This document shows positions 1,952-47,684 of a stretch of 52,615 bases of DNA, one piece after another. The first letter of the stretch is position 1. Each line of letters starts with the position of its first letter. The stretch is from NCBI GenBank assembly GCA_964508125.1, contig CAZDTC010000001.1, forward strand, positions 1-52,615, written 5' to 3'. Made by a program: the position numbers and the translations under genes. This DNA is from an uncultured Candidatus Kuenenia sp. GTDB taxonomy: Bacteria; Planctomycetota; Planctomycetia; Pirellulales; UBA1268. The notes under the pieces were generated by a model. That model did not search any database and was not told the DNA's origin. It saw nothing but the letters and a program-made list of their open reading frames with translations.

Positions 1952-3478
1952 TTAGGCCGGGCTTGGGGTGGCAGTCGGCGTCGTGAACGCGCGGCGATAC
2001 GACCACCCATTGCGAAGGCGATTCTTTACGGTCGCATACTTGATCCCACTGGCCTTGGCCGCCGCTCGGATACTGTCGTACCGGAAGATCTTTCTGTCGT
2101 GGCGAAATTCAATCCTAGTCTTGTTTCGTCGGTTGCTGTCAGGCGGCGTGGTAAGTGCTCTTCTCACACTCCACCCCAGAACATCCAGTCGATAACTGAC
2201 GCAGGTCTCCGACAGCGAATACTCCTTGGCGGCTCTCCTGCGACTAGCGTAGCAATACAACTTGCCACGATAACGAAACCGCAGTGGCTTCGCCTTTGTG
2301 GTTGGAGAACCAAGATCCTGCAGGCCTGCCGCCTGCTCAGGGGTTTTGCCCATCCGAAGTCGCCGCCGGAACGTATCTGGATTGACCTCGTAGCATCTGG
2401 CGGCGGCGGACTCCGACGGGAATGTGGTTCCAGCAACCCTAATCGCTCTGCCACTTACAGCGGAGCACCCACCGCCGCCTCGTGACTTGTTAAGGCCAAC
2501 GGGAGCGAGGGTGTTTAGCAAGGCAATAAAATGCCTCTCGAACGCATCGAGCTCGTGTTGCGTGCCAGCGGTGGCGAGAACCTCGGTTCGAAATGAACCT
2601 GGTCCGTCACGTCTTATGAGGGCAGCCACCCGCGACTCCGTTCGCGTTGGCGCACGCAAGGCATCAATGCAGTGCCGAGCCCAACGCCGAGCGAAAGTCG
2701 TCACCGTTTGCCCGACGTACTTCTTGCCAGAGGGAGCATGGGTCAACAGGTACACAATCCCAAAAGATCGTTTGGTGTGCTTTGGGTGTGGCTCTAGGTC
2801 GAGAGCTTGTTCCAACGTCCAGCCCGCGTTTTGGTGACGGTCGTAGACCGTCTCATACGTCTTGTTGAAGTGCCTGCAGGCCGCCCTAAGGCTCCGAAAG
2901 TGCTGCGGTTCATCCGATGCCCGAACCGTAACAGCCCTTTTGTTTTCAGGGGGTGCAAGACCAACGGCAGCCTCCGGTGACTGACCAGACTGAATGCGAT
3001 GCCGAATGGTGTCGCCACTCATGCCGTAATGGGCGCCGACGGCACCATACCCGTGAAACGTGAGTTGTTGATCGCCGTCATGAACTGTGATCAGGGTTGA
3101 ATTATGCGTAGGAGGCCTCTTTGGAGGGTCAGTCAATCCGACCGCAGCCTCGATAGACCATCCGCGATCAACGGCCGCCCGTATCCGAGCCTCCGGGATG
3201 TTGAAATAGCGCCCCAGCCTCGCATAGCCCCGGAAGGTGCGACGGACGCCATCCACGACAAGCACGAAAGTCTTGGTGTTTGGCGGCTGAGGCCTTTCCG
3301 GAGGCGGATCTAAACTGACGGCCTGTCGGCTCGTCCATCCAAGCCGCAGACGATCTTTGATCTTTCCGCTTGGCACGTTGTATTCATTGGCAGCGGCCTG
3401 CCTGCTCTCAAAAACCCGCAACATGCCGCCATCCAATACGGAGAAAGATGTCTTCATGGGCCTAACGTCTACGCTCAC
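1952..3478 (-). CDS. GIY-YIG nuclease with seven flanking ~55-aa HTH-like (NUMOD/IENR-like) repeats
   Basis: The GIY-YIG core is at aa 239-332 (nt 2483-2764): 'FGIVYLLTHAPSGKKYVGQT', 'RRWARH', 'ELDAFERHFI', 'GLN'. Four N-terminal and three C-terminal repeats share the pattern '..G....F.S...AA.......T...R...GWS.E.A', e.g. 'IEFRHDRKIFRYDSIRAAAKASGIKYATVKNRLRNGWSYRRAFTTP'. Confidence 0.75.
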   Translation of the reverse strand: MSVDVRPMKTSFSVLDGGMLRVFESRQAAANEYNVPSGKIKDRLRLGWTSRQAVSLDPPPERPQPPNTKTFVLVVDGVRRTFRGYARLGRYFNIPEARIRAAVDRGWSIEAAVGLTDPPKRPPTHNSTLITVHDGDQQLTFHGYGAVGAHYGMSGDTIRHRIQSGQSPEAAVGLAPPENKRAVTVRASDEPQHFRSLRAACRHFNKTYETVYDRHQNAGWTLEQALDLEPHPKHTKRSFGIVYLLTHAPSGKKYVGQTVTTFARRWARHCIDALRAPTRTESRVAALIRRDGPGSFRTEVLATAGTQHELDAFERHFIALLNTLAPVGLNKSRGGGGCSAVSGRAIRVAGTTFPSESAAARCYEVNPDTFRRRLRMGKTPEQAAGLQDLGSPTTKAKPLRFRYRGKLYCYASRRRAAKEYSLSETCVSYRLDVLGWSVRRALTTPPDSNRRNKTRIEFRHDRKIFRYDSIRAAAKASGIKYATVKNRLRNGWSYRRAFTTPTATPSPA

Positions 3479-3866: not shown

Positions 3867-4316
3867 TCAGCGTCGGGCCCGCGCCGCTTCCCGCTGCCCC
3901 TGGACATCGAGGATCTCGGCAACCTCAAACACCGGAGGCATCGCCCCGAACCGCGGCCGCAGGCGGACGACGGGAACGAAATACCCAGCCCGTCCGTGAA
4001 TCTCGGCAATCACCAGGCAGGCGACGGGGGAGAGCGCTGGCGGCACGATCGCCAGCCTGCACGACTGCCACTGTTCCGATGTCAGTCCAGCGGCCTCGAC
4101 AAAGCCAGCCGCCTGCTCCGCGAACGGCCGGGCCAAATCGCAGTGGGTTGGAACCGCCAAGATGTGATCTACGCGCCAACCCGATAAGCGCTCACAAGCT
4201 GCCACCTGTGCTCTGGTGAGTGGATGGGCAAAATTAATGACCGTCACCTTGGGGGCTTCCCCGCCGCAACCGCGCAACGTCGGAATGTCGGCCCGGTTGA
4301 GTTCCATCTCAGCCAT
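3867..4316 (-). CDS. Small alpha/beta protein, possibly Csx15-like CRISPR-accessory family
   Basis: 'VINFAHPLTRAQV...LAIVPPALSPVACLVIAEIHGRAGYFVPVVRLRP...PPVFEVAEILDVQ' matches my recollection of Csx15-family proteins, which I cannot verify without a search. The start is set at an internal Met, because the ORF-track start at 4439 adds an Arg/Gly-rich extension. The gene is divergent from the CARF gene at 4681. Confidence 0.4.
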   Translation of the reverse strand: MAEMELNRADIPTLRGCGGEAPKVTVINFAHPLTRAQVAACERLSGWRVDHILAVPTHCDLARPFAEQAAGFVEAAGLTSEQWQSCRLAIVPPALSPVACLVIAEIHGRAGYFVPVVRLRPRFGAMPPVFEVAEILDVQGQREAARARR

Positions 4317-4680
4317 TCTCCAGCGAATCCCTGACTGCCTTTCCTCCACCAGCCTGGCGTGCCCTCCGCCGCCGCGTGCGTCGGTCTTGATGGACGCCCG
4401 AGCCAGAAAGATGCGTTGCATGGCCACGCCGGATCTCATGCGGCTTGCGACGTTTTGGCATCCTTAGGCAGTGGCGGTTCACGGCGACCATTCCAAAATC
4501 TGGTGACAGGTTGGAAATTGAGGCATCCTGTCCTTATTACGCATGGATCGACTCACACGTGACCAAACGGTCCCGGACTGCCGTTCTCATCGCATATAAA
4601 GAAGGGAATTTCCCTGACCGACGACGGGCCGTCACGTTTCGCCCAGTTCGTTCGTATCGTTTGCGAGGAATCTCCCATCC

Positions 4681-6150
4681 ATGAAAACCATCGTCTGCAC
4701 AACGGGCACCTCCATCGCCGCTGGCGTGCCAGAAGAAACTCGGAACCGCGGCGGCGAAGCATTTCGCGAAGCGATTCGCAAGCGGCTCGCTGGTCTTGCA
4801 TCTGGGCTGGCGTCTGGCGAGTTTCTCGAGCGTGCGAGCGCCGAATCCAACAGCGTCTGCCGGCTCGCTCCCGCGGCAGGCGACCGCGTGGTTCTGCTCT
4901 GCTCTGAAACCGATGAGGGGACGATCTGCGCGGAGGAGGTACAGCGTCTTCTGGCCAATCATCTTCACGTCGCCGCCGAGTGCCGGCGCATCGAGGGCCT
5001 GCAGGCTTCGGACGCAACACGCTTCCGCCGCGTCGGCGTGCAGAACCTGTTCGGAGAGCTCGATCGCCACTGCGGATCATCACGATCTGGCGGTGGCGAC
5101 TCCGTGTTTCTTAATGTAACCGGCGGCTTCAAGTCGGCCGTCCCTTACGTGACGCTTTACGGCCTTCTTCACCAGGTCCCCGTGGTATACATCTTCGAGC
5201 GAAGCGACCGGCTATTCACGCTTCCCCAGGCCCCGGTGCGATTCGACTACGATCGCCTCGCTCCGGCCGCTGAAGCGATCTTCACGCTCTACCGTGAGAC
5301 GGACATGCCCAAGGAGGAGTTCTTCAAGCGGATTTCAGGGCTTCCGTTCCACGAGCGGGCGATCTATGAACCGCTGCTCGACGAAGAAAACGGCCGCGTC
5401 ATGCTCTCCGCCTTCGGCTTGCTCCTCCACGAAGCACTGCAGCGGGATCGCGGCAACGTCTTCCTCTCCCCGAGTGCTGCCAAGGCATTCGAGGACGCCA
5501 CGGGCGACGCCCGCGACCAGCTCGCGTTCATGCTCGACCGGGTCGGTGACCCGCTGATGCGACGAGCGAAACGCCACTCATTCCACGGCACCGATCTCGA
5601 GGTCTACAAGCCGGGCAACACAGCACAGCGAATGGCCTACTTCATGCGCGGTGACGACGTGCACGTCTGCGAGCTCTATCCGACACACGACGAGGGCTAC
5701 GAGAAGATGTTGGCTACAAGGCGAGTCGCTGACTACGAAACCGCCCGGTTCGTGCCTTGGTCGCGGCCTGCGGAGTTGCCGCCCAGCCCATCGACCGACG
5801 AGCAATGGGCGAACGAGCAGGCCCGAAAGTTCTCGCGGCTACAGGACCGCTGTACGATGCTTGAGCGCCGGGCCGCAGAAGCCGAAGAGCAGGCCTTGCG
5901 CCTCGTTGAACTTGAGGACGAGATCGCCGCAGCCCGCGCCGAGGCTGCTTCAACGGAGGCGAGGTTTGCGGCAACCGATGCGGAACGGCTTACCCTCGCC
6001 GCGCAGGTCGAGCAGGGCCGTGCACGCGAGCAATCGCTCCGCGACGAGGCGATGTCGGCAATCGCGTCGGCAGACCGCGTTCGACGCTTTGCCTCGGAGG
6101 CCGGCTGGCTTGGGCGTCTACGGTTCCTGCTCAGCGGAAAGATGACATGA
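4681..6150 (+). CDS. CARF domain - RelE/ParE-like toxin domain - coiled-coil fusion protein
   Basis: The N-terminus 'MKTIVCTTGTSI', 'SAESNS' and 'FLNVTGGFKSAVPY' are hallmark CARF (APE2256/Csm6-type) motifs (aa 1-250). Residues 258-345 (nt 5452-5715), 'VFLSPSAAKAFEDATGDARDQLAFMLDRVGDP...LEVYKPGNTAQRMAYFMRGDDVHVCELYPTHDEGY', follow the RelE/ParE pattern. Residues 375-465 are heptad-rich and Ala/Glu/Arg-rich (coiled coil). An SD-like 'gaggaa' lies upstream. The stop overlaps the next ATG (ATGA at 6147-6150). Confidence 0.75.
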   Translation: MKTIVCTTGTSIAAGVPEETRNRGGEAFREAIRKRLAGLASGLASGEFLERASAESNSVCRLAPAAGDRVVLLCSETDEGTICAEEVQRLLANHLHVAAECRRIEGLQASDATRFRRVGVQNLFGELDRHCGSSRSGGGDSVFLNVTGGFKSAVPYVTLYGLLHQVPVVYIFERSDRLFTLPQAPVRFDYDRLAPAAEAIFTLYRETDMPKEEFFKRISGLPFHERAIYEPLLDEENGRVMLSAFGLLLHEALQRDRGNVFLSPSAAKAFEDATGDARDQLAFMLDRVGDPLMRRAKRHSFHGTDLEVYKPGNTAQRMAYFMRGDDVHVCELYPTHDEGYEKMLATRRVADYETARFVPWSRPAELPPSPSTDEQWANEQARKFSRLQDRCTMLERRAAEAEEQALRLVELEDEIAAARAEAASTEARFAATDAERLTLAAQVEQGRAREQSLRDEAMSAIASADRVRRFASEAGWLGRLRFLLSGKMT

Positions 6151-7001
6151 GCGAGAGGTCTCGCGTGATCCGCCGACGCAGAATGCCGGGGGTGGATTTC
6201 CATTCCTCCGGTGGGATATACCGAATCCACTTTTCGGAGAATCCGAAGATCGACGCCGCAACAGGATTGCGAATGAGTTTCGACTCGGAAGAAACCATCG
6301 AGTCTCGCATCGCCCGCTGGTTGGAGACCGGCGAGGGACAAGACGACGTTTTTCGAGCCGTCACCAAATTGATCGAGGCACGGCGCAGGTACTTTTCCGA
6401 ACTCTACGGCGAGCGAGTCACGACGGAAGCACTGGACGACGCTCCCGGGCGGGTGTTTCTAAAGATCCGGGCGGGCCGTTTCACCGCAGGAAGACCTTTT
6501 CGTCCATGGCTGAAGATCGTTCTAAGGAACCGGATTTTTGACATCCTGCGGCAGGAGGAGCGGCGAGCAGAGAAGTTTCCGATACATGACAAAGCCGAAA
6601 CCGTACGTGACGACGCCGATATCGACCGAACGATCAATGTCGCACAAGACGCTTTGCAGGCAGACCTGCTCGTTCGCGTGGTCGCCGAGCTCGAACGTCT
6701 TCTCAAGCCCGACAACCGACTCATTTTTGCCGTCGCTTCCGGACTTGCTGAGCACCTTGATCGGCCGGTGCTCGATCGTTGGTGTGCCGCCTGCAACTGC
6801 GGGCTGCCACTTCGCGAGGTCGTCGATGAGTTGCTGGAACTTCCAATCCACGGTCGGCTGAGCAGACTTGCCACTGCGTTTGGCCTCAAGCCGAATACCT
6901 GCATCAAACGTTTCCATCGGGCTGCGGAGGACCTTGCGAAATCTCCGCTCTTGAAGGACCTTCGGAATATTCTGGACGGAGCAGTCCCACCAGGCGCCTG
7001 A
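6147..7001 (+). CDS. ECF-type sigma-70 family factor (with ~65-aa N-terminal extension and insert in region 4)
   Basis: Region 2-like 'EALDDAPGRVFLKIRAGRFTAGRPFRPWLKIVLRNRIFDILRQEERR' aligns by eye to RpoE '[38 protein letters not shown]'. Region 4 HTH-like 'LSRLATAFGLKPNTCIKRFHRAAEDLAK' is also present. The gene is translationally coupled to the upstream CARF-RelE gene. Confidence 0.65.
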   Translation: MSERSRVIRRRRMPGVDFHSSGGIYRIHFSENPKIDAATGLRMSFDSEETIESRIARWLETGEGQDDVFRAVTKLIEARRRYFSELYGERVTTEALDDAPGRVFLKIRAGRFTAGRPFRPWLKIVLRNRIFDILRQEERRAEKFPIHDKAETVRDDADIDRTINVAQDALQADLLVRVVAELERLLKPDNRLIFAVASGLAEHLDRPVLDRWCAACNCGLPLREVVDELLELPIHGRLSRLATAFGLKPNTCIKRFHRAAEDLAKSPLLKDLRNILDGAVPPGA

Positions 7002-7095
7002 ACGAGGCCAGGCAGAACGCCTGTCACGAATCCACAGACTCCCGCGTAAACGAGCTAGATGGGTAACACGACGGAGTCACTTGCGAGACACTGCG

Positions 7096-8112
7096 ATGCA
7101 CGACGACACTTCCCTCATTCAGACACTGGCCCGACTCGGCCAGGCTGCGGCCGCTGACGCCGCGGCGGCCCGCGGCGTGCTTGCTGACCTGGGAAGGCGG
7201 GCCGCGTCTGGTGCGGAACCCCTCCACGTTGCCGCCGGCGCGGTGCCCGCCCTCCTTCAGGCGGGCCGCGTGATCGCGTCGGAAATCGCTCACGAAACCA
7301 AGCAGTTGTCGTCTCTCGACGACCGCTGGCATGCGGCGACATCGCAGGCCGAGGCCGACGCCATAGCGTCCGCCCCGCTCGCCGCGCGTCTGGAGGCAGG
7401 CTTCGCGCTTGAGGGCGTCGAGTCGCTGATCGAGACCACCGCCGGTGAAACCGGCCCGATCAAGGACGTGGCGCGCAACCTGGCCTCGGCCATTGTGGCC
7501 TACGATGCGTCGCTGCGTCGCAACCTCGACTGCCTCTGCACGCTTGCCGACGGCGATTCACTAATTGCGTGGCGGCGATCACTACCGCCGGGCATGGATT
7601 TTCCGTGGTGGCTCGACGGTACGCTCGAAGCACGGGCTTGTGCAAATGACAAGCATTCGGCGGCCCTTGCCGCGCGGCTTGCGAGTGCGTTTGCCGGACA
7701 ATCTGTCGCTGCCGCGCCCCGACTGGCAGCCTCGACAGTCGCGGCAGCGGCGATCGGCACTGCGGCAGGTTATTCCCTCGCGGCCGCGATACCGCCGGCT
7801 GCCGGCATCACGACGCACATCTGGCGTCATCCTTCGCGGCCCTTCGAGGCGGTGCTGTGGGTGCCGGCCAGGTTCGCCGACGACGCCGACCTGAGGATGG
7901 TGTTCCAGGCGACCGGCCCGGGGTTCGCGCCCCGCGATCTCGTGGGCGAGGTCGTGATGCTCGGCGGACTGCCTGCGGTCGTCCGGGAGGATGGCGAGGG
8001 TCCGGCCGCTCGCGTGGAAGCGACGTGGCCGGCGCACGCCGTGGCCGACTCCATCCGCAACACGGTCGCGTTGACAGACGGCCGCGGCGACAACTGGATT
8101 CCGGCGGAGTGA
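7096..8112 (+). CDS. Hypothetical Ala-rich protein (~338 aa); positional candidate for anti-sigma / protease substrate
   Basis: Long ORF in the operon between the sigma-factor gene and the Lon/CARF/palm gene, with no recognisable motif. The ATG at 7096 is preferred over the TTG at 7081. The functional label is inferred only from position. Confidence 0.5.
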   Translation: MHDDTSLIQTLARLGQAAAADAAAARGVLADLGRRAASGAEPLHVAAGAVPALLQAGRVIASEIAHETKQLSSLDDRWHAATSQAEADAIASAPLAARLEAGFALEGVESLIETTAGETGPIKDVARNLASAIVAYDASLRRNLDCLCTLADGDSLIAWRRSLPPGMDFPWWLDGTLEARACANDKHSAALAARLASAFAGQSVAAAPRLAASTVAAAAIGTAAGYSLAAAIPPAAGITTHIWRHPSRPFEAVLWVPARFADDADLRMVFQATGPGFAPRDLVGEVVMLGGLPAVVREDGEGPAARVEATWPAHAVADSIRNTVALTDGRGDNWIPAE

Positions 8113-8125
8113 CCCTTCCGCCTCA

Positions 8126-11100
8126 GTGGCCGTCCCGCCGGGGCCCGCAACGATGTTTGTACCCTCCCGCGACACACTCGATACATCCTGTCGCGACGAT
8201 GCATCGGCTGACCCGCAGCGTGCTGTACGGCTGGTCAGCGACATGGGCCCTCTCGGGCGGCTCTGGCTGCGGCCCGATGTTCTCGCGTTGGCGGAGCGAT
8301 TTGCCGGCGGTGCGTCGCTGCCGCGGGCTCCACTGGGTACTGGCGGGTTTCACGCCCTGCTTCTGACACCGGGCCGCGGCCGCTATGCAGCGCTCCGCCC
8401 AGCGTTCGCCCTGCCGCTTCGGTGGGTGGCCGGCGACACCCATTCCCCTCATCTTCCGCCGGGACTCACCGACTTCGCCACAACGCTGCTCGCCGAACAT
8501 GAGATCGAGTTCGGCATCGCCCCTCCTCCCACGGGCCATTGGACGCTGCAACTCGGCGGCTTTCTCGAGGGGCGGTGCGACTTCTCGCAGTTCGACTTCG
8601 GATGCGAGTGGGATTCGGCGACAGCGTCGCTGCTCGGCGGATTGCTGCTCGCGGTGATCGGGGCACCACCCGATGAGCAGGTGATGGCGTCAATCGCCTG
8701 GGGCCCGGGCGGTCTTGGCCGGGTGGAGGGCATTGCCGACAAACTCGACGCTGCCCGCGACGCGGATGCCCGACTCGCATTCCTCGCCGCCGCCGATCGC
8801 GAAGACGCAGCCCGCTGGCACGTCGCCAATCCTGACGCTCCGCTGCGAACCATCGTGCTCGAGTCCCGACCCACGCTTCGTGAGTCGCTGGCTCCCTTCC
8901 TCCAGGCGATCGAGGCCCGGCCCAGCGCCGATGCCCCCCTCCCGGAGCTGCAGCGGTTCTACGAAAAGCGGCTCTTGGGGGCCGATTTCGCCGAGCACCG
9001 TCGCAGCTTTTACCTCGACGTAGTCGTCGATCGTATCGCCGCCGACTATCGGGGCCCACTTCCGCCCGCCGATCCGTGCCGCAACCTGATCGGCGTGGTC
9101 GGCCCGGGCGCGGCTCCGCCGCTGGCGTTCCTCGCCCGCGTGCTGGCCCCGCGCCGGGTGCTGCTCCTGCACGACGCGCAGGCCGCCAGGCACGCCGAGG
9201 CGCTCGAGGCCCACCTCACAGGCGTCCGCGGCGTCGCCGTGACATCGCACGAGTTCAAGACGCTCTTCGGCCCGCTCGACGAGTTGCGACCGGAGGTTGA
9301 GCGGGCGATTGCCGCATTTCTTGGTGACGACCCGGTCGACGACGGCTTCGTGGACACGGTGATCGACCTCACTGGCGGAACCCGGCGGCTGCCCTTCGTC
9401 CTGCTCGACATCGCGCCCGCGCGAGCCGCTTGCGTGCACATCGATGCCGAACGCGTGAGCGGTCAGATCGAGAGAATCGGCACGGAGAAGATCGTCACGA
9501 TCGACGTCCCGAGGGCGGGGCGATTGGCGTCGAAACTTCTTGCCGCGCTGTCCCAGGGTTCCGTGTCGGTGCCGGTATGGCACCTCGCGCCACTTGACCG
9601 ATGGCACCTGCTGCGTGACACGTGCCTTGGCCACGCCCCCGTCCGCGGCGGCATGCGCACTCGTGATCTGCCGCTTGACCCCGAGGCTCGCGAACTGGTG
9701 CAGACAGCCGCCCGTGTCCAGTCGAGCGAATACGAAGTGGGCGGCAAGGTGAAATGTCGTTTCGGAGATTGGCTTTACCTGTTCGCGGTTCTCGTCGAGC
9801 CGGCGTTGGCGAAATCACCCGATGCGGCCCACGCGGCGATCCGCGAATGCATGCTGGAGCTGCGGCAGGCTCTCGGACTCAGTGAGCTCCGGGATTTCGC
9901 CAACAAGTGCCCGTTTCACCACCGTCTGCTTGGCATCCTCGGCCTGAGCCGGCAGGAGTGGCAGCGACTCGCGTCTGAGGGCACTTCTTTTGAGCGGGAA
10001 CGACTGGTCGCGAGGCTCGGCGCCCGTGTCTGCGCTGCATTCCGTAGCCCCGAGCCCCCACACCTTTCACCGGAAGATCCGGATGTGCTCTCCTGGGCCG
10101 TACGTGCGATTGGGGCCAAGGATCGTGACCGAGAACTTCTCCAGGATCTCGCTGACGCAAAGCGGGTTCTGGTGACGATCAAGCCGAAGGATATCCAGCC
10201 GTACATGCATCGCGCGAAGATGCATTGGATGATGAGGGGGGCGAGCGTCTGGTGTGCGCAGTCGCTGGGCTTCGCCCGCGACCACATCCTCGAAAAGCAA
10301 GGCGGACTGCTACTCAGCGACCTTGATGCCCTCGTGGCATTCGTGTTTCCCGAAAATGCTCCCGTGGTGAAAGACATGCTTCAGGGTGTCGCGGCCGCGT
10401 GGGCGAACCCTGCATCCTTCAAAACCAAATTCCCACGTCTTGCCGCTTACCACCCAGCCAACGAACAACACCGCCACCACGGCATCGACCCCATTCAGTC
10501 GCTGCCGCTCCTATCTGCGTGGCGATATCCAACGACGTCGCTTCTCGATCTCTGCGTTGCACGCGGTTCGCGCGCCCCTGAAATGCGTGGTGAAATTCCA
10601 CGACCTCTGCCGCGCGACGCCGCCACAGCCGCAGGCGACGTTCCATGCTCCTTCGTCGAGCGGGAAAACGCCTATGTTTCACAATCACCCACGTGGCTGA
10701 CTGACCGCAGCGACCGACAACGGGAGAATTATGGTTGGTCGGCGCTCTGCTGGTCGCTCGCTGGGACAACCCTGCGGACCCACTGGCATCACGGCGTGTG
10801 CGCAGCACTGAACCGTGACGACTACCCGATGATGGCGGTCAGCCACGGCGGCTGGCTCGAGCATCTCAAGATGAAGACCGAGCGGCTAACTTTTGTGAAA
10901 CTGGATGGAGACGGTGTTGGAGAGCGTTTTCTCAATGAATCATTTCCAAGTCGCCCACTTCTCGGCCTGAAACTCGGCCGGCTTGTTCAGGAGCGGGTCT
11001 TGGCGGCCACACGGCGCGTGCTCGAGGTTCACGACGCGGCGAAACGCCCAAAGTATCTCCCCGTCGACCTGGTTTACTTCGGCGGCGATGATATTTTCTT

Positions 11101-11491
11101 CTGCCTACCAGGCTGCTACCTCGAGCCATTTCTGCAGGGCTTCGGCCAATCGTTCGATGGGAGCGAACTCGCTCCATGGAAGTCCACGCGTTTCAGCGCT
11201 CTATCTGTCACCCTGCCGCCGGGGTCGGACTTCAAGGACAACGGCCGACTGTCGCAGTCGGAGGAATTCGCCCGCGCGAACCTGGCAGCTGCAAAGACGC
11301 TCGCTCCCGGCCTGCGGGACCTCGTCAAGCGAGGGCACCCTGATGACGCCACTCTCGCCAAGCTGAACAATTCAGTCGCGCCCCTGGGCTATCGCTGCGA
11401 GTGGGGCGGGACCCATGCAGACACCGGCATCGTCCACGGCGTCAGCCTCAGGCTCGTCCGGCTTACCCGCGACCCCGCGATTTCCGGCTGA
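8126..11491 (+). CDS. Multidomain protein: Lon-like (S16) Ser/Lys protease motif + CARF-like Rossmann domain + helical region + C-terminal GGDD palm (mCpol/Cas10-like cyclase) domain
   Basis: Lon-like: 'EWDSATASLLGGLLLAVIGAPPDEQVMASIAWGPGGLGRVEGIADKLDAA' parallels the Lon 'GDSAS...AL.G.P....VA.TG.....G.V..VGG...K..AA' pattern (Ser164 at nt 8615-8617, Lys206 at 8741-8743). CARF-like: 'RRVLLLHD...VIDLTGGTRRLPFVLL' (TGGT at nt 9371-9382). Palm: 'LTFVKLDGDGVGERF' (nt 10904-10915) and 'VDLVYFGGDDIFFCLPG' (GGDD at nt 11081-11092), as in Cas10 / minimal CRISPR polymerase. No HD domain was seen. Confidence 0.6.
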   Translation: MAVPPGPATMFVPSRDTLDTSCRDDASADPQRAVRLVSDMGPLGRLWLRPDVLALAERFAGGASLPRAPLGTGGFHALLLTPGRGRYAALRPAFALPLRWVAGDTHSPHLPPGLTDFATTLLAEHEIEFGIAPPPTGHWTLQLGGFLEGRCDFSQFDFGCEWDSATASLLGGLLLAVIGAPPDEQVMASIAWGPGGLGRVEGIADKLDAARDADARLAFLAAADREDAARWHVANPDAPLRTIVLESRPTLRESLAPFLQAIEARPSADAPLPELQRFYEKRLLGADFAEHRRSFYLDVVVDRIAADYRGPLPPADPCRNLIGVVGPGAAPPLAFLARVLAPRRVLLLHDAQAARHAEALEAHLTGVRGVAVTSHEFKTLFGPLDELRPEVERAIAAFLGDDPVDDGFVDTVIDLTGGTRRLPFVLLDIAPARAACVHIDAERVSGQIERIGTEKIVTIDVPRAGRLASKLLAALSQGSVSVPVWHLAPLDRWHLLRDTCLGHAPVRGGMRTRDLPLDPEARELVQTAARVQSSEYEVGGKVKCRFGDWLYLFAVLVEPALAKSPDAAHAAIRECMLELRQALGLSELRDFANKCPFHHRLLGILGLSRQEWQRLASEGTSFERERLVARLGARVCAAFRSPEPPHLSPEDPDVLSWAVRAIGAKDRDRELLQDLADAKRVLVTIKPKDIQPYMHRAKMHWMMRGASVWCAQSLGFARDHILEKQGGLLLSDLDALVAFVFPENAPVVKDMLQGVAAAWANPASFKTKFPRLAAYHPANEQHRHHGIDPIQSLPLLSAWRYPTTSLLDLCVARGSRAPEMRGEIPRPLPRDAATAAGDVPCSFVERENAYVSQSPTWLTDRSDRQRENYGWSALCWSLAGTTLRTHWHHGVCAALNRDDYPMMAVSHGGWLEHLKMKTERLTFVKLDGDGVGERFLNESFPSRPLLGLKLGRLVQERVLAATRRVLEVHDAAKRPKYLPVDLVYFGGDDIFFCLPGCYLEPFLQGFGQSFDGSELAPWKSTRFSALSVTLPPGSDFKDNGRLSQSEEFARANLAAAKTLAPGLRDLVKRGHPDDATLAKLNNSVAPLGYRCEWGGTHADTGIVHGVSLRLVRLTRDPAISG

Positions 11492-11584
11492 AATCGCGCT
11501 TTTTTCCCGTCGGTCACGCTTCGCGGCCCCCGAGCGTACTTCCCGTGTCGACCGATATTCGCTCCGACACGATAGGAACCCGCC

Positions 11585-12562
11585 ATGAACAACCGCACTC
11601 TCGCCCTGCTCGTCGCCGCCATCCTCGCAGTGGTCACCATTTTCGGCCTTCAGTCGCAGCAGAGCGCCGTCGTGGTTCGCCCCGTCCCTGCCGATGTGGC
11701 CGCCGGCACCTATGACCGCATCCACCTGAGCGTAGCCGCCGCGACGGCGCGAAACGAGCAGGCTGCCCGACTCTGCGAGAGCGAGATCAACATGATCCTT
11801 GCCCGCGAGTTTCCCGAGATCGAGCGCCGCGGGAACAAGGTCGCCGAGGAGGTCGCAAGCTATGGCTCCTGCTGCACGATCATCTACCGCCTGGCCAAGG
11901 AGAAGCTCGGTTGGTCTTCGAGCACGGCCGACTACGTCGAGGGCGAGATCCGCGGTCGCCTGCAGCCGGCCCTCGACACGTGCGGCCGCGAACTCGACAC
12001 GGCCCTCGACCGCTGTGAACTCGCCCTCAGGGAGAGCACGGTGATGCTGGCGACTGAGCTTGCCCAGATGAGTCCGTCTCGGGCTGACCAGTCGATGAAC
12101 ATCGCCGTGGACGTCCGCACCGGCGGTGACCTTGACCAAGCCCTTCGCAATCTTGGCCTCAGCGGCGGCATTCTCACGGTGAGCGGCGCCTTCGACGTGG
12201 TCGCCATCATGAACACCACCGTCTTCCGCACCATGATCCGCACGATCGTGGAGTTGGCTGCATCCCTGTTCGCCACGCCTGCCGCCACTGCTGCTGGCTC
12301 GGCGGCCGTGGCGGCCGCTGACGGCCCTCTGCCGGTGGGCGACGTCATCGCGGTGCTGGGTGGAGCCTGGACGGCCTACGACATCTACGCAACCCGACGT
12401 GAGTTCGAGCGGGAAATCAAGGCTTCACTCTCGAACGCCCTGCCGGAGATGAAGCGAACCGTCCACCACCAGCTCATGGAGCGACTCCACTCGCTCCAGT
12501 CCGAGTACCAGCGGGCTCAAGACCGGATCCGCAACGAGATGGCCTTGAACCTCACCCGATAG
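11585..12562 (+). CDS. Membrane protein, family A (paralog of 44665..45696)
   Basis: N-terminal TM segment 'LALLVAAILAVVTIFGL', then a helical domain, then C-terminal hydrophobic segments with the conserved 'DGPLPVGDVIAVLGGAWTAYD'. An SD-like 'aggaa' precedes the ATG. Clear similarity by eye to the 44665 ORF. Confidence 0.65.
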   Translation: MNNRTLALLVAAILAVVTIFGLQSQQSAVVVRPVPADVAAGTYDRIHLSVAAATARNEQAARLCESEINMILAREFPEIERRGNKVAEEVASYGSCCTIIYRLAKEKLGWSSSTADYVEGEIRGRLQPALDTCGRELDTALDRCELALRESTVMLATELAQMSPSRADQSMNIAVDVRTGGDLDQALRNLGLSGGILTVSGAFDVVAIMNTTVFRTMIRTIVELAASLFATPAATAAGSAAVAAADGPLPVGDVIAVLGGAWTAYDIYATRREFEREIKASLSNALPEMKRTVHHQLMERLHSLQSEYQRAQDRIRNEMALNLTR

Positions 12563-12572
12563 GAGCCCTTCC

Positions 12573-13484
12573 ATGACCACCTTCAGCCGCCGCCTTGTCC
12601 TCGCGTCGCTTCCCCTGCCGGTGGCGTTTGCCGTCGCCACGTCCGGCGTCGCCTTCGCCGTGCCGGGCGTGGGAACGCTCGTGCGCGAGACCGTGGAAAT
12701 GGCCGTCAAGAAGAGCGGCCGTGAGGTCGTCGAGCGTGCTTCTCGGGAAGTGGCCGAGCAGGCCATCGAGAAGGGTGTGGCGAAGTACGGGCCTCGGGCG
12801 GCCCAGGCCGTCGTCGACGGCGGCATGGAGCTCGTTGAGGCATCCGCGAAGTACGGCGACGACGTCATGCGGGTGGCTGTTGAGGCGACACCAGCGGCAC
12901 GCCGGGCGCTCGCGCTCGAACCGGGCCGGATGCTGCCCCTCGTCCGCGAACTCGGCCAGGAGGCCGTCGAGCTCGAGGCCAAGGCGCCGGGCCTCGCCCA
13001 AAGGGTGTTCACCACCTTTGGCGACGACGGCGCGCGGCAGATCGCCCGAACGGTTCCGGCAGAAGACGTGCCGCGGCTGCTTTCCCACGCCGAGCGGGCC
13101 GAATCTCCGGCTGTGCGTCGCGCACTCCTCGACGCTTACAAGAAGGAGGGGCCCGCGATGTTTGCGAAAATCACGCCCAAAATAGTTGTTGCCATCGGGG
13201 CGAGCGGCGCCCTCGTGTACGGCACTCACCGGATGACCGGTCCGTTCGCTGCCTTGGCCCACTGGATGCGCATCAATCCTGATGCGGCCCGTGACATGCT
13301 TCGGGGGCTTCTTTGGATCATGGGCACGGTCGCCGTCCTGACGACGGTCTTTGTACTGGGATCCTTTCGCCTCACCCCGTGGCACGCTCGACGGCCAGCA
13401 GATCACTGGAAGGCAACAGGCTCAGATCCTACGGGGACTGCAGCGGGGGACCGACGCACCGCTATCGACGGCGTGTCCGGTTGA
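12573..13484 (+). CDS. Membrane protein, family B (paralog of 45708..46628)
   Basis: Signal/TM 'LVLASLPLPVAFAVATSGVAFA', a helical Ala/Glu/Arg-rich domain and two C-terminal TM segments. SD 'aggag' lies 8 nt upstream, directly after the stop of the previous gene. Similar along its length to the 45708 ORF. Confidence 0.65.
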   Translation: MTTFSRRLVLASLPLPVAFAVATSGVAFAVPGVGTLVRETVEMAVKKSGREVVERASREVAEQAIEKGVAKYGPRAAQAVVDGGMELVEASAKYGDDVMRVAVEATPAARRALALEPGRMLPLVRELGQEAVELEAKAPGLAQRVFTTFGDDGARQIARTVPAEDVPRLLSHAERAESPAVRRALLDAYKKEGPAMFAKITPKIVVAIGASGALVYGTHRMTGPFAALAHWMRINPDAARDMLRGLLWIMGTVAVLTTVFVLGSFRLTPWHARRPADHWKATGSDPTGTAAGDRRTAIDGVSG

Positions 13485-13572
13485 TGCCTGGTCTCCGTTC
13501 TGACCGCCGCAGTTGGCAATTGCGGTCGAAGCCTCTGCAATTATTGCTTCATGCACGCAACGAGTCACTGCC

Positions 13573-15153
13573 TCAGCATTGAACTGCATGCCTGATGGCA
13601 TCACACACCCGACGGCAGACGGCGTCCACATGCACGAGGTCGACTGCGGCCTCCGTATCCGACTCTCGATTGTGAGCAAAAGTGTCCCTCGTGATCCGCA
13701 GGCTGTCGAGATCGTTGAACAGCCCTGGAAGGTAGCGAACGGCAGCCGCCACGAGTTGCGAGTGCGCCGCGACGCTCGGCGGGTCACACAGCACCAACGG
13801 CAACAGCCAGATCGTAATACTCTCGCCGAAGCCGCACTTATCGCTCTGGATCAATTGCACGGCCGGAACGATCTTCCTGGCCGACTCGACGCTTCGGCAT
13901 AGGTGCGTAAACGACCCTGCTACCGCCTCCCTGAGACCAATTCGGTCAAAAGCTTCCGTCACATTCCGCTCGCCCACTCGCGACTCGATCACGGCGGCCT
14001 GCTGCTGACGAGGCAGCCGCTGCAATTGCTCCCACCACCCCAGCACATGGTCACGCGACTGGTGCCGCAGTTCGACGCCGATTTGTTCAATCAGGTGCTC
14101 GTATCCAGAGCACGCATCGCGGTACGTGGGTGCTCCGGCCTGCCACTGAACCAGGTTCCTGTGCGGAGTGTCAACCCAGTCCGCTACTATCGGCAGGACG
14201 CTGCGCAGGTCATCCACAGTCCATCCTGCTCTCTTTCGGTGAGCGGTCACGCGACGCTCGAGTTCGGCGGCGCTACCGATAACCGTTGGCAGATGAGACA
14301 TCTCGTAGAGTTCTTGGCAGCGATTCTCCACCTCTGCATACACCTCGGGCACGTTGGTGTTCATCCACTGCCCAAGCCGCTCATCCACCGGACCGTCGGA
14401 CTCGGCCGAATCAGTGTCCTCTGGCAGGCTCACGACCGGTGCATGAAATACAGCCAAAGGGCGATCGCTGACCCGCGGAATCAATACAACTTTGGACCAC
14501 ACGCACGTTCGCTTCCATGGGCCGCCGATGGGCTCGCGAGCCTGATCCCTGAGGATGGATCTGACACGTAGAGCGCCTCGCTCGGGCAACGAAGTGGCTG
14601 GAAGATCAGGAAACGACACATCCGCGCCAGCGTCATCGTCATCGCTCGCTTCATCGTCGTCGGCATCTTCCTCGGAGGCTGCTCCCAGGGGCTCGATCCT
14701 CAAGCTCGGCCAACCCGGCAGCATGCGGAGTTCGAAGTCCAGGTCGACGTCCTTGACGCATGCTCGCATGTCGATCGAAACGCGCGGCGATGGCAGATCT
14801 CGGTCGAGCCAGACGGCAGGCAAGAGGCTGGCTGTATGGGGAGCAACGAAAACCCAGCCAGGCATCAGGGCTCTTCCGGCAATGTGCGAGTCAGAGGCAT
14901 TGCTCGCGACAAACAATTCCTTGCTTCCCTCGACGACCTTGCACAGTTGCTCGTCGATGAGCAGGTTCACCGCGGACTGGACGATGTCCTCGGGAATCGC
15001 GAGTTTCCGGACCATGTCCTGGATCGACTGCGCTCCGGCCTCCATCAAGCGGAGAACGGTCTCCGACAGAAGATCGAGATGATCCTCCGCGTCTATCGCG
15101 ATCTGAACCGGCACTGCCACCGTCGGAATCGAAACCCAAAGCACTTTTCTCAT
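13573..15153 (-). CDS. wHTH-like N-terminus, acidic linker, C-terminal HEPN-like (Rx4H) domain protein
   Basis: The start at 15153 overlaps the helicase stop (ATGA), indicating coupling. The N-terminus 'LSETVLRLMEAGAQSIQDMVRKLAIPEDIVQSAVNLLIDEQL' is wHTH-like. An acidic run 'ASEEDADDDEASDDDDAGAD' follows. The C-terminus 'LRITRDTFAHNRES' contains R-D-x3-H (nt 13672-13689), the HEPN RNase signature. Confidence 0.55.
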   Translation of the reverse strand: MRKVLWVSIPTVAVPVQIAIDAEDHLDLLSETVLRLMEAGAQSIQDMVRKLAIPEDIVQSAVNLLIDEQLCKVVEGSKELFVASNASDSHIAGRALMPGWVFVAPHTASLLPAVWLDRDLPSPRVSIDMRACVKDVDLDFELRMLPGWPSLRIEPLGAASEEDADDDEASDDDDAGADVSFPDLPATSLPERGALRVRSILRDQAREPIGGPWKRTCVWSKVVLIPRVSDRPLAVFHAPVVSLPEDTDSAESDGPVDERLGQWMNTNVPEVYAEVENRCQELYEMSHLPTVIGSAAELERRVTAHRKRAGWTVDDLRSVLPIVADWVDTPHRNLVQWQAGAPTYRDACSGYEHLIEQIGVELRHQSRDHVLGWWEQLQRLPRQQQAAVIESRVGERNVTEAFDRIGLREAVAGSFTHLCRSVESARKIVPAVQLIQSDKCGFGESITIWLLPLVLCDPPSVAAHSQLVAAAVRYLPGLFNDLDSLRITRDTFAHNRESDTEAAVDLVHVDAVCRRVCDAIRHAVQC

Positions 15154-18100
15154 GAATGCACCATCCGGCTTGGAATCACGATGCCGCGGCATCCGTCTGC
15201 CACTTCCTGCTGCATCGCTTCGAACACGCGACGCATCGGGGGCGGCTCGCGTGTCCCGCGAGTCCGGGCTGCGAGGGTGGCCGTGTCGCCGATGATGATC
15301 AGCTGCCGCTGGGCACGCGACATGGCAACATTGATCCGCTGCGGCAACGCCATGAATCCCAGGGATGCGTTCGGGTTGCTGCGGACTGCCGAAAGAATCA
15401 CCAGCGGATATTCCTTGCCCTGAAAGCTGTCCACCGTTCCGATCTCGATCGTTCGCTCGATATCTGGCCTGCCCATCTGCTGCACGAGGGCCTCGATTAG
15501 TTTTCTCTGCTCGCTGTAGAACGCTATGACGCCGATCGTCTTGCGGCCGCCGATTTGTTCCGCGAGCGTGGCAATGGCCTCGGCATCGACGGTCTTCAAG
15601 AGCGTTTCGATAATGGCTACTTCGTACCGGTTGGTTTCATGGCAAGGCCATGCCGGAACCCGACGGATCGCTCGCTGCGTCGGATCGGCCAGCACGTCGC
15701 TCGTATCGATCCAGACCAGGGGATGATTCGTCGCCTTACCCCACACGGGGTCGTCCGCCTCATGCCCCCTGCCAACCACGGGGATACCGAACGACGGCAA
15801 CCGGGACTTCGCTCGCGAGAGGTCGTGCGTCCAATGTGAATCCAGTTTTCCGTCATAGAAAACGTTGCTGATGGTCTGCCCGATGGCCTCATGCATCCGG
15901 TACTGCATCGTCAGGGGGATCTTGTTCTCGCTCGGCACTCGTGCCCAAAGCCATTCAAAGAAGGACTCCCGCTGAAGATCGACTTCGCGTCCTTCCTCCA
16001 TCTGTTGCGCGATGAGTTTGTCCACGTGCGGAGGCAACTGCTGCTGGTCGCCGATCAGCACCACGGATCGCCCAAGTGTCATTGGGATGAGGATGTCGAT
16101 GCCTGCCCGGGCCGCCTCGTCGATGATGACGACGTCATAGCCATCATTGACGCCCACTCGTGGTGCAGCCGACCGTTGACACGTCGCGGTTGAAACCGGA
16201 GCATGCCTCGCAAACACCTTCTCGAGCCGCCTGGGCTCATCCCGAAGCGCTCTGATCCATGAGTAGATCACGGCAGGCTCACCCGTTGCGACCTCGCTCT
16301 TCGCGTGCTCAACGCAGCCCGCAGCGAGGCCCATCCACTCCACGACGTCTCTCTCCACCGGGGCCCAATGATCCTCGTATGCAGCCTGACTGTCATCCTC
16401 GCGTTCCGTTGACAAGGCCGCCACCGTGCGTTCGATGAGCCCCTGCCACGAGCTGACCACATCCGCCGGTACGGAGTCGCTCAGGGCGAGGCCGAGCTTC
16501 ACCGCGAGCGTACGCCACTCCTTGGCCAATGCTTGGTGCGCGACAGGCGCCTCGAGAAGCGACTTCCACGCATCGGAAGCGGACCTCACCGTGTCAGCAA
16601 CCTGCTTGGCTGCATCGGCGGCGGTCGTGGCGGGAGATGCGGAGAGCCGCACCAGTAATTCCGTCACGGCCGAGCCGCCCGTCACCTGCACGACGATCGA
16701 CGGCTGCTGCCGGCGCTCGACATCGGCCTGTATTGCCCGCCGCATCGACGACTCTATCGCCGCCAGCTTCTGCACCAGCAGCGGCGGCAACTCCGTCGCC
16801 TCCTCGGTCGCAGCGATCCCCACGAGCTCGGCAACGACAGCCTCGTTCACCTTGCGGGCGGCGACTTCATGCCGCAGCGTGCGGATCCGATCCCCGAGGT
16901 CGCTCAAGCGGAGAAAACTGATAAACCGCGAGTCCCCTTCCACGGTCGCCTTCAACCGGGCGACGATACGCGCCGCCTCGCTGAGGAACCGCCGCGTCTG
17001 AGCGACACGGTGCCTGTTTTTGCGATCCGAGCCAAAATCCGCGTAGACCTGCACTTCGTCGCCGGAAAGTTTCTCGATCGCGTTGAGGACCGCATCGTTC
17101 TGCACGCTGGTCACGAGCACGCGCAGTGGACCGCCTTCCTCCTCCCGTCGATTCCTGTATCGCCGCCGCAATGCGTGAATCAGCTCCACGATCACGCTGG
17201 TCTTCCCCGTGCCGGGCGGTCCTTGGACCAGGAATAGGCCCGGTTGCTGCACCGCCCGCTGGATGGCCCCCTTCTGGGCGTCGTTCAGCGGTGGCGATCC
17301 TTTTCGTGACTCGTACTCGTTCTTGGGCGGCGAGACCGGCGTCACCGACGACGGGTCGGAAACGTACTGCAGCATTTGCGGACAGGCCGCCGCACCCGTC
17401 CGCAGTCTTGTGATCGCTTCTTCCCGCCGTCTTCTCTGGGCTGCGTCACCGGCATCCTCGGCCGCGATCAATCGCCCTCGCGCGAACGGTGCTTTGCCAT
17501 CTCGTATGCGTATCGTCGCCACAGTACGTCCCGCGTTGGCGTCCTCGGCAAACGCCACCACCTCGGCCGCGATTGGATCGGCGTGGGAGTCACCTGCTTC
17601 GAGTGAATGCATCTCGACCATGCCCTTGACGCGCACGCCCCGCCGCAGATCGAAGTTATCACTGGCAATCCATCGCTCGATGGCTTCGCGTGGGCTGGCC
17701 ACATTGACTCTCCACGTGTCACCCGCCGCCTGCCCGACGACCTCGAGGTAATCGAGCGGCGTGCTCGCCCGCGATTCAAAAGTCCCTCGTTCTGCCGCCT
17801 TTGCGATCATCTCGTATTCCAGCCATGCATCTAGGAACGGGTGCGGCCGGGGCCTGAAGGTCGAAAGGTCCGCGAACCTGATGTTCTGCTCCGTCACAGT
17901 GAATACCGGCGGCTGCGACACCGCGATCAGTCGTGCCTCGGGAATGGCCGTTGGTCGATCCTGAATCTCCTCGACAACTAGGTACTCCGCGCCACGACCA
18001 CCTCCCACGCGACACGCCAGCCGCTTTCGATTTGCGAGATACACGTATATCCGCAACGCATCGGCCGACGACGACTCGATCGACCCGAGCAGGGGCGTGG

Positions 18101-18584: not shown

Positions 18585-18586
18585 GC

Positions 18587-22468: not shown

Positions 22469-22488
22469 GCTTCTTTTCCTCTGGCCGC

Positions 22489-28946: not shown

Positions 28947-32467
<3,521 letters not shown>

Positions 32468-32471
<4 letters not shown>

Positions 32472-35398: not shown

Positions 35399-35487
35399 CC
35401 GCCGTGCACCAACTACTGACGGCCCTCGGACAACCACCGTCGCTGATAGTCTGCTCGCCACCTCACTTCATGGACCTCGCCACGAAC

Positions 35488-35525
35488 TGCGTAGAGACGC
35501 CGAAAGTGCGTAGTAAACTGCGTAG
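35488..35525 (+). promoter_or_regulatory. Three copies of TGCGTAG in the DUF1156-DUF499 intergenic region
   Basis: TGCGTAG occurs at 35488-35494, 35507-35513 and 35519-35525 (spacing 19 and 12 nt). The function is unknown. Confidence 0.35.
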
Positions 35526-35529
35526 CACG

Positions 35530-35553
35530 CCCCTCCATTCAGGGGATTCTTTT
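35530..35553 (+). terminator. Weak intrinsic-terminator-like hairpin
   Basis: CCCCT (35530-35534) / AGGGG (35541-35545) with a 6-nt loop, followed by ATTCTTTT. The stem is short, so this could be an attenuator rather than a full terminator. Confidence 0.3.
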
Positions 35554-35571
35554 CGAGCCGTCTGGGTGCCG

Positions 35572-35616: not shown

Positions 35617-35643
35617 ATAACCCAACGGATCGGACGCCCCCTC

Positions 35644-39735: not shown

Positions 39736-39771
39736 ACTCGTAGCGATCGACCTGTGTTCGCCGGAGAAACC

Positions 39772-47650: not shown

Positions 47651-47684
47651 ATCCCTGACTCCCTTGGCGAGGAGCATTTACCAC

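Follow-up and report, generated by a model that had tools for sequence, protein, structure and literature searches.

The SAVED-Lon protease CalpL, which acts with sigma and anti-sigma partners, is the characterised relative (PMC11229360) of a putative signalling locus that we describe here from a stretch of 52,615 nucleotides of an uncultured Candidatus Kuenenia sp. (GenBank assembly GCA_964508125.1, contig CAZDTC010000001.1; this whole stretch is called the window below). The central element of the locus is a single open reading frame (ORF) that, in our best reading, encodes a natural fusion of a Lon-CARF effector with a two-palm Cas10-like cyclase working without CRISPR RNA. CARF-Lon proteins are, as far as we found, a bioinformatic prediction only (PMC9704534). 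Among the relatives of Cas10, mCpol has been described as a minimal Cas10-related polymerase (PMC13577387), which occurs in operons with 2TM-beta, CARF-TM and SAVED-TM effectors and in fusions to Csx1/HEPN (PMC12657218, PMC13577387); in the part of that literature which draws on the 2020 CARF classification, the mCpol-Csx1 (CARF-HEPN) fusions figure as predicted single-protein signalling systems (PMC13577387). In its operon, the fusion gene of the window is preceded by three genes (g1, g2 and g3) and followed by two (g5 and g6).

Our locus shares with CalpL-CalpT-CalpS a Lon-type Ser-Lys protease placed under a sensor domain for cyclic oligoadenylate (cOA) and encoded beside a candidate extracytoplasmic function (ECF)-like sigma factor and a further conserved protein, and by analogy its predicted output would be the proteolytic release of the sigma factor. 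It differs in that the sensor is a CARF domain and not SAVED4 as in CalpL, in that the protease is covalently fused to the generator, in that no type III CRISPR-Cas accompanies the locus, and in that g3, the candidate counterpart of the substrate CalpT, resembles no solved structure, among which we assume CalpT to be counted. With Cas10 of types III-D and III-Dv, Cmr2 and Csm1, the C-terminal half of the fusion has in common the GGDD motif of the cyclase, a metal-binding Asp upstream of it and a pair of palm-like domains, but it lacks an HD domain and a clear four-Cys zinc finger, has a short C-terminal region in the place of D4, and carries a distinct N-terminal helical domain; moreover, it is unaccompanied in this locus by Cas5, Cas7, Cas11, Cas6 or an array, and two predicted membrane partners are found instead. 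The likeness to mCpol/Panoptes (OptS with OptE or CARF-TM) lies in the pairing of a CRISPR-independent Cas10-type palm enzyme with a nucleotide-sensing effector in a small defence operon, whereas two palm-like domains, in a family of ~615-720 amino acids (aa) with a 220-aa helical domain, set our protein apart from mCpol, and a protease/sigma module with a RelE toxin stands where Panoptes has membrane pore proteins as effectors. The mCpol-Csx1 fusions likewise unite generator, CARF sensor and effector on one polypeptide; here, however, the generator is Cas10-like and not mCpol, the effector is Lon and not a HEPN RNase, the domain order is different, and the fusion belongs to a multi-gene operon with a second CARF effector. 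This second effector, g1, is similar to Cami1, a ribosome-dependent mRNA nuclease that is activated by cyclic tetra-adenylate (cA4) and often found with other cA4 effectors (PMC11229360), but it has an extra C-terminal stretch of ~130 aa outside the models and accompanies a CRISPR-less generator. We class the system as a whole with those defences of the type III/Panoptes lineage that use nucleotide second messengers.

In the current understanding, Cas10 cyclases are gated by the binding of CRISPR RNA (crRNA) to its target, and to our knowledge the mCpol/Panoptes systems, which signal constitutively, are the only characterised CRISPR-free relatives of Cas10. In all but one of the loci that we examined, CRISPR components were undetected beside the Cas10-like gene, and its partners vary; the family thereby raises the question of what activates Cas10 without a guide RNA. 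In the papers open to our search, neither a Lon-CARF-Cas10 fusion nor a CARF-Lon/sigma cassette is described, nor any family of two-palm Cas10 proteins that is CRISPR-free and has membrane partners, an earlier in-silico mention being possible in each case. The fused form offers a compact experimental handle, with generator, sensor and protease in one chain and a candidate substrate and a candidate sigma factor next door, and it would give the CARF-Lon family its first functional context; a nucleotide-gated protease of this kind may also find use as a tool, as with CalpL. Beyond the original prediction, which was made from the sequence alone, the gene context adds a concrete output (the putative sigma factor and the candidate substrate) and candidate input partners (g5 and g6).

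One reading frame, three modules

The ORF at 8126-11491 (+) is one uninterrupted frame of 1121 codons, opened by GTG 8126, in which the probable start is ATG 8153 (M10), the start position shared by the homologs P0001 and P0002; the protein would then have 1112 aa, and residue numbers are counted here from GTG 8126. The motifs on which the original prediction was built lie exactly where it had placed them, with Ser164 at 8615-8617, Lys206 at 8741-8743, TGGT at 9371-9382, and DGDG and GGDD at the positions given in Table 1. When Ser164, Lys206, TGGT, DGD and GGDD were aligned across homologs, the catalytic residues proved not to vary even in distant ones. Because these motifs are invariant or at least 90% conserved in 62 Lon-CARF and 52 Cas10-like family proteins, we regard them as more than chance resemblances. 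Each of the three modules proposed earlier (Lon protease, CARF and GGDD palm) was borne out by independent tests with profiles, PADLOC and Foldseek, and we consider the assignment of the fusion protein to Lon protease, CARF and Cas10-like domains highly probable.

The N-terminal half is a predicted Lon-CARF effector

We searched 1.84 billion representative proteins exhaustively with a profile and obtained 418 hits, and the statements below on stand-alone relatives refer to the best 150 of them. Many of these, 440-485 aa in length, stand alone and cover nothing but the N-terminal half (aa 10-454), whereas in the window the same unit carries a 660-aa Cas10-like extension. Residues 28-444 match the PADLOC model CARF_m2--CARF_LON (PDLC01981) over nearly its full length (E=6.1e-53; model positions 17-392 of 408), and judged by sequence the N-terminal half belongs to the predicted Lon-CARF family, which is CARF_m2 in the 2020 CARF classification. 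S164, K206 and D414 are invariant in 62 proteins of this family (23-68% identity), and conservation is 90% or more at T416 and G418.

The family profile (A3) matches the protease domain of Archaeoglobus fulgidus LonB (1z0e; E=3e-9), as well as many LonA proteins, and in the LonB alignment S164 and K206 are matched with the serine of GDSAS and the lysine of QK, which we take to be the catalytic dyad Ser509 and Lys552. This match, together with the invariance of the two residues, upholds the earlier proposal of a Lon S16 Ser-Lys dyad. The same profile matches the CARF domain of Thermus thermophilus Csm6 (5fsh; E=5e-11) and, more weakly, the CARF domains of Cam1, Can2, Can1 and Card1, while the PADLOC Csx1 and CARF models match the N-terminal half weakly; the Csm6 match and that to CARF_m2--CARF_LON agree with the CARF-like reading of the TGGT loop. 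By PADLOC and the family profile, the sensor region resembles CARF domains such as those of Csm6 and Cam1 and not a SAVED sensor. A full-length structure prediction from 4 close sequences was unusable (predicted local distance difference test, pLDDT, 31), and since the confident model described below covers the C-terminal half, the Lon-CARF fold rests on sequence profiles.

The C-terminal half is a two-palm Cas10-like protein

Stand-alone proteins of ~615-720 aa match residues ~455-1107 alone. Among 52 Cas10-like family proteins (20-70% identity), the residues D514, G705, S707, R718, D732, C841, D927, G932, G987-D988-D989 and K1068 do not vary, and G928 and D929 reach a conservation of 90% or more. 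Since the metal-binding Asp and GGDD are invariant over so diverse a set, the palms are probably catalytic. The family profile (A2) matches the type III-D Cas10 8bmw_K (E=2.6e-9) and, more weakly, Csm1 and Cmr2, and PADLOC Cas10 models are matched by 43 of the 52 family members. Palm 2 matches Pfam Cas10-Cmr2_palm2 at E=0.047, and in a comparison by hhalign with a weak Cas10-like match in the archaeal locus L008 the probability was 96.6%, the alignment being limited to palm 2.

An AlphaFold2 model of the C-terminal half (m18f0ff23f156) reached a pLDDT of 91.7 and a predicted template modelling (pTM) score of 0.92. The top 50 Foldseek matches of this model in the PDB are all Cas10, Cmr2 or Csm1 (428-863 aligned columns; TM scores 0.26-0.43), the best being 8s9t_C, a small type III-D Cas10, and 8bmw_K. 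The model begins with a helical domain, which is followed by a βαββαβ unit, a linker and a second βαββαβ unit, with DGD on strand 1 of the latter and GGDD on its hairpin, a strand-turn-strand formed by model strands 527-532 and 535-541. Thus, the GGDD hairpin sits inside a Cas10-like fold, and the assignment of GGDD and DGD to a palm, made earlier from the motifs, is now joined by the Cas10 profile match, the invariant residues and structural neighbours that are exclusively Cas10 proteins.

The helical domain (model residues 1-223, equivalent to ORF residues 455-678) is built of helices spanning model residues 9-223, with pLDDT mostly above 90; besides the invariant D514, it contains G502, G508, R511, R513 and P516, which are at least 90% conserved in the 52 sequences, and a search of the PDB with the family profile gave 0 sequence matches to aa 455-678. 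In palm 1, the model has a strand at 225-233, a helix at 246-271, strands at 274-278 and 283-287, and a strand at 342-346; the invariant G705, S707, R718 and D732 belong to this unit, and the RGAS motif lies on its helix. The ~450-aa region between CARF and GGDD palm, which had been taken as helical and without a recognised motif, is therefore helical at aa 455-678, but it is not a free-standing inserted domain, as it divides into the conserved helical domain, palm 1 and a linker.

mCpol has a single palm domain. We rejected the reading of the C-terminal half as such an enzyme on account of its size (~660 aa) and its two palm-like units, and the mCpol-type minimal generator of the original prediction is replaced here by a two-palm Cas10-like protein. 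We likewise rejected the 'extremely diverged Cas10' of subtype III-I, in which the cyclase domain has been lost (PMC12669027), whereas the family studied here has an invariant GGDD. Neither Pfam nor PADLOC gave an HD family match that would indicate an HD nuclease domain, a feature of many though not all Cas10 proteins, and the His residues of the helical domain are not invariant in the 52 sequences; no clear four-Cys zinc finger was seen in the C-terminal half, whose C-terminal region is short. As a side observation, the family members P0021, P0023 and P0033 carry a C-terminal SpoT-like HD_4 domain (AAWLHDVLED motif).

Reality and origin of the fusion

The fused gene is present in three contigs, namely the window, L001 (93% identity) and L018 (85% identity). 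In each half as well as over the junction, the ratio of nonsynonymous to synonymous substitution rates (dN/dS) amounts to 0.18-0.28, with dS of ~0.13-0.41, and by these sequence measures the fusion is real and under purifying selection. Elsewhere the halves are separate genes: P0003, 72% identical to the C-terminal half, and P0006, 68% identical to the N-terminal half, are both unfused, no other full-length fusion occurs among the best 150 of the 418 hits, and a word-indexed homolog search found 3 close relatives only. That each of those 150 hits covers a single half is what one would expect if two neighbouring genes had been wrongly joined by an assembly error or a frameshift; such an artefact is, however, scarcely credible in view of an unbroken frame in three independently assembled contigs, at the dS values given above and with dN/dS of ~0.2 at the junction. 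The fusion is a recent, lineage-specific event. The single polypeptide with generator, sensor and output that the original prediction described is thus real, but it is not the norm, the halves being usually separate.

In locus L003 (1-7044), the Lon-CARF gene stops unfused and is followed by a Cas6-like gene. Compared with positions 4001-9175 of the window, L003 has 91% DNA identity over g1, g2, g3 and the first ~350 Lon-CARF codons, after which the two diverge. This pattern suggests recombination within the Lon-CARF gene, by which the effector cassette was exchanged between CRISPR-linked and CRISPR-free generators.

Two conserved modules in the operon

Two modules were defined with local hidden Markov models run on every locus fetched. 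In the first, g2, g3 and Lon-CARF are always together (window, L001, L003, L005 and L014-L018), with g3 always between g2 and Lon-CARF; wherever the contig of a Lon-CARF locus reaches far enough upstream, both g2 and g3 are found ahead of Lon-CARF. In the second, the Cas10-like gene, g5 and g6 are always together within the clade (window, L001, L002, L005, L009-L011, L014, L018 and L019), g5 lying directly downstream of the Cas10-like gene or at another place of the locus together with g6. In L005, a Cyanobium metagenome-assembled genome (MAG), and in L014 the two modules are both present but unfused, with genes for a radical S-adenosylmethionine (SAM) protein and a DUF4230 protein between them; L020, whose contig begins inside Lon-CARF, also contains both genes in unfused form. 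Given that both genes are present unfused in L005, L014 and L020, the two halves are genetically linked even when separate, which speaks for a functional link. Each module is also found on its own: the Lon-CARF cassette stands beside a genuine Cas6, with no Cas10-like gene on those contigs, in L003 and L015, and the Cas10-like/g5/g6 module is without Lon-CARF in L009-type loci.

Table 1. Features of the fusion gene, its operon and the remainder of the window (positions in the window; residues numbered from GTG 8126).
Feature	Coordinates	Strand	Remarks
g1, Cami1-like CARF7-RelE effector, 489 aa	4681..6150	+	opens the operon
g2, ECF-sigma-like protein, 284 aa	6147..7001	+	CalpS-like by position
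g3, conserved 343-aa protein	7081..8112	+	PWWLDGTLEA motif; candidate anti-sigma factor/Lon substrate by position
Fusion ORF Lon-CARF::Cas10-like	8153..11491	+	1112 aa; fused in window, L001 and L018
Lon (S16) protease core, Ser164/Lys206 dyad	8600..8896	+	profile against 1z0e; boundaries approximate
CARF domain, DLTGGT loop at 9365-9382	8990..9487	+	profile against 5fsh; boundaries approximate
N-terminal helical domain (aa 455-678)	9488..10159	+	motif WHL..RW..LRDTLLGH..RGGxRxRDxPxD; candidate regulatory/input domain
Palm 1 (aa 679-800)	10160..10525	+	RGAS motif 10235-10246, SDLD hairpin; predicted structure
Palm 2 (cyclase; aa 916-1029)	10871..11212	+	DGDG 10904-10915, GGDD 11081-11092; profile A2
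g5, predicted membrane protein, 325 aa	11585..12562	+	N-terminal transmembrane helix, second hydrophobic segment, DGPLPxGD motif; hydropathy
g6, predicted membrane protein, 303 aa	12573..13484	+	signal-peptide-like N-terminus, C-terminal transmembrane helix, PWH motif; hydropathy
Serine recombinase	12-1769		one end of the window
GIY-YIG/NUMOD1 protein	1952-3478	-	same end
PDC-M26A-like ORF	22489-25308	-	
HmaB and HmaC	31175-38472		near full-length PADLOC matches
Two CsgG/TolB_N-like lipoprotein ORFs	38488-42018		
NAAA-beta/Ntn-hydrolase-like ORF	42044-43477	-	neighbour of second g5/g6 pair
GTPase+DUF697 ORF	43379-44563		neighbour of second g5/g6 pair
C92 papain-like amidase ORF	47526-48398		neighbour of second g5/g6 pair
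5'-truncated tRNA match	52562-52615	-	other end of the window

The gene g1 matches Pfam Cas_APE2256 (E=1.8e-24) and PADLOC CARF7--CARF_RelE (E=3.4e-50), and its position is kept in L001 and L003. With the family profile of g2 (A7), 12 ECF sigma factors of the PDB (SigE, SigW and SigL among them) were matched at E=3e-3 to 1, with sigma-2 and sigma-4 aligned. For g5 we found 58 homolog clusters, all unnamed, and no PDB match to its profile, and g6 is always paired with g5. We rejected the possibility that g5 and g6 are diverged Cas5 and Cas7, since both are predicted to be helical, with transmembrane segments and a signal peptide.

Radical SAM genes (with DUF4230) recur beside the unfused Cas10-like gene, at 5333-6989 (-) in L005, 4838-6494 (-) in L014 and 9411-10004 in L009, and in L009-type loci a radical SAM ORF of 197 aa overlaps the Cas10-like start codon. 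These neighbours may indicate a modified nucleotide product in the relatives concerned. For the fusion itself, we consider it improbable that the palms make something else, for instance a linear oligonucleotide or a nucleotide that is modified or derived from SAM, or that they form a non-catalytic scaffold whose CARF domain senses an outside signal. The proximity of radical SAM genes in unfused relatives would fit such a product, as would the SAM-AMP made by some Cas10 enzymes (PMC11229360) and the SpoT-like HD_4 domain fused to some family members; however, the invariance of the metal-binding Asp and GGDD argues for catalysis, neither a radical SAM nor a DUF4230 gene lies between the Lon-CARF and Cas10-like parts in the fused lineage, from which the radical SAM gene is absent, and a standard cOA is suggested by the CARF domain as well as by the neighbouring Cami1-like gene.

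A proposed CRISPR-independent signalling pathway

We postulate that the fusion serves a CRISPR-independent cOA pathway with a CalpL-like protease/sigma output, and we assign to the full mechanism, that of an activating alarm, a probability of roughly one half. An infection-related cue, relayed by g5/g6 or sensed by the N-terminal helical domain, would switch on the Cas10-like cyclase, and the GGDD palm would then produce a cOA, most likely cA4. The messenger would bind to a CARF domain, either in the protein that made it or in a dimer partner, and activate the Lon protease, which would cleave g3, acting as an anti-sigma factor, and so release g2, the ECF-like sigma factor, to bring about a transcriptional response; g1, the Cami1-like CARF-RelE toxin, would be activated by this messenger too and would stop translation. 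Fusion of generator and sensor could provide a local, stoichiometric coupling and thereby a fast, possibly self-reinforcing response. The ligand of both T. thermophilus Csm6 and Card1 is cA4. Cam1, Can1/Can2 and Cami1 are listed among the cA4-activated effectors (PMC11229360), and since several of the nearest solved CARF domains (Cam1 and Can1/Can2) as well as Cami1 respond to cA4, we regard it as the probable messenger. The cleavage of g3 and release of g2 are proposed by analogy with CalpL-CalpT-CalpS (PMC11229360).

More specifically, we tentatively suggest that in this CRISPR-free Cas10 a protein-level cue, received through g5/g6 and/or the N-terminal domain, might replace crRNA-target pairing, and that cyclase, CARF and Lon could form a cis-acting, possibly self-amplifying switch that frees the ECF sigma factor. 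If true, Cas10 activation would be independent of RNA guides, and there would be a route from envelope-level infection sensing to cOA signalling.

The CRISPR-independent reading is supported by the absence of a CRISPR array from the 52.6-kb window, by the absence of any match to Cas models, including Cas5, Cas7 and Cas11, in the neighbours scanned, and by the varied non-Cas partners of the sampled family members. Distant Cas10-like members adjoin GTPases (L021), Mokosh-like helicases (L006), HD_4 proteins (L013) or unknown genes (L023). The family is rare in sequenced genomes, with 5 loci in 185,579 species genomes; a metagenome scan gave at least 3 loci, searches of plasmid and phage collections gave no matches, and a comparison with viral structures no significant match.

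The main rival of the alarm is a guard similar to Panoptes, in which a constitutively produced nucleotide would hold the Lon protease, and with it the Cami1-like toxin, in the off state until its depletion by phage sponges or ring nucleases sets the effectors free. We favour it less and consider it unlikely, although mCpol, a relative of Cas10, acts in this manner with 2TM-beta and CARF-TM effectors (PMC12657218, PMC13577387), no CRISPR machinery was found that could gate the cyclase, and the fusion of generator and sensor would be an efficient means of keeping the sensor saturated. The generator is, however, a two-palm Cas10-like protein and not mCpol. Moreover, the Lon-CARF/g2/g3 cassette that stands beside Cas6 without a Cas10-like gene in L003 and L015 fits a cOA-activated effector better, and in type III systems a ligand activates the effector families concerned, Cami1-like and Lon/sigma-like (PMC11229360). 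Since effectors of the Cami1 and CalpL types are switched on in this way, we favour a generator that is off by default. Among the neighbours, PADLOC detected neither a 2TM-beta nor a CARF-TM effector.

Several observations weigh against the alarm pathway as we propose it. The cyclase activity, its product, the ligand and the protease substrate are all things that we infer, and no infection sensor was recognised in the operon, a point that would also suit the guard, as would the inverted logic of the mCpol systems (Panoptes), whose Cas10-type palms signal constitutively (PMC12657218, PMC13577387). With the palm 1 segment profile alone, no Cas10 was found in the PDB, and palm 1 is supported only by the predicted structure. 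The match of g2 to Pfam Sigma70_r2 (E=0.0076) is under the curated cut-off, which makes its assignment as a sigma factor weak, and g3 has no match in Pfam, PADLOC or the PDB and no detectable similarity to CalpT or to an anti-sigma factor. A terminator-like hairpin with a T-run at 11476-11498 overlaps the stop codon of the fusion and precedes g5; such sites are no more numerous in the region than shuffling leads one to expect. The window also contains a second g5/g6 pair (44665-45696 and 45708-46628), with 30-42% identity to the first, which adjoins unrelated enzymes (Table 1) and no Cas10-like gene, and the first pair is linked to the fusion by conserved synteny only. Possibly g5 and g6 are a portable membrane module for different enzymes.

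The last point of this kind comes from L007 (Motiliproteus MAG JBALWH010000013), where, within 9980-16713, a distant Cas10-like member of 24% identity lies directly upstream of a 461-aa Cas2 fusion, Cas1 and a CRISPR array of 22 repeats with the 36-nt repeat GTCCGGACCAACCCCCGCTCTAAAGGGGATTAAGAC. One protein encoded upstream, of 1049 aa, is UvrD/AddA-like; the neighbouring genes that were tested include no recognisable Cas7 or Cas5, and two adjacent ORFs have no PADLOC match. L007 may represent a CRISPR-linked branch of the family or a chance neighbourhood. It would accord with a Cas10-like half that is still a CRISPR subunit and docks on a type III crRNA complex encoded elsewhere in the genome, where target RNA would activate it as usual, the fusion serving to tether an ancillary effector, and so would the facts that the structural matches are all Cas10 subunits of crRNA complexes and that relatives of the Lon-CARF cassette adjoin Cas6. 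We nevertheless judge this quite improbable, given a window without an array or a Cas5, Cas7 or Cas11 match in the neighbours scanned, conserved partners in the clade that are two predicted membrane proteins and not RAMP (repeat-associated mysterious protein) family members, the GTPases, helicases and HD_4 proteins that adjoin other sampled members, the small number of sequenced genomes in which the family is found, and the lack of a recognised Cas7 or Cas5 nearby in L007 as well. We retain the CRISPR-independent alarm as the preferred reading.

Genomic surroundings

The neighbourhoods of distant Cas10-like members are diverse. In L021/L022 (295-7220), which is CRISPR-free, P0043 lies downstream of four tandem GTPase genes (MMR_HSR1 and IIGP/AIG1-like) and a gene for a 375-aa unknown protein; in L013 (4756-7879), a separate HD_4 gene is found just upstream of the Cas10-like member; and in L006 (30-6183), genes for an MkoA-like helicase and MkoB-like proteins are directly upstream of the Cas10-like gene on the same strand. 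A block of MkoA-like, MkoB-like and DUF2357 genes also lies immediately downstream of the operon, on the opposite strand, in the window (13573-22561, -) and in L001. This proximity to Mokosh-like genes reflects either a recurrent association or clustering within defence islands.

The window itself is a defence island: it contains an Hma system and the Mokosh-like block, its two ends carry a serine recombinase and a tRNA fragment, respectively, and the features at these ends are consistent with an integrated genomic island that carries defence genes. Of its two CsgG/TolB_N-like lipoprotein ORFs, one has a DUF4145 domain and the other HEAT repeats.

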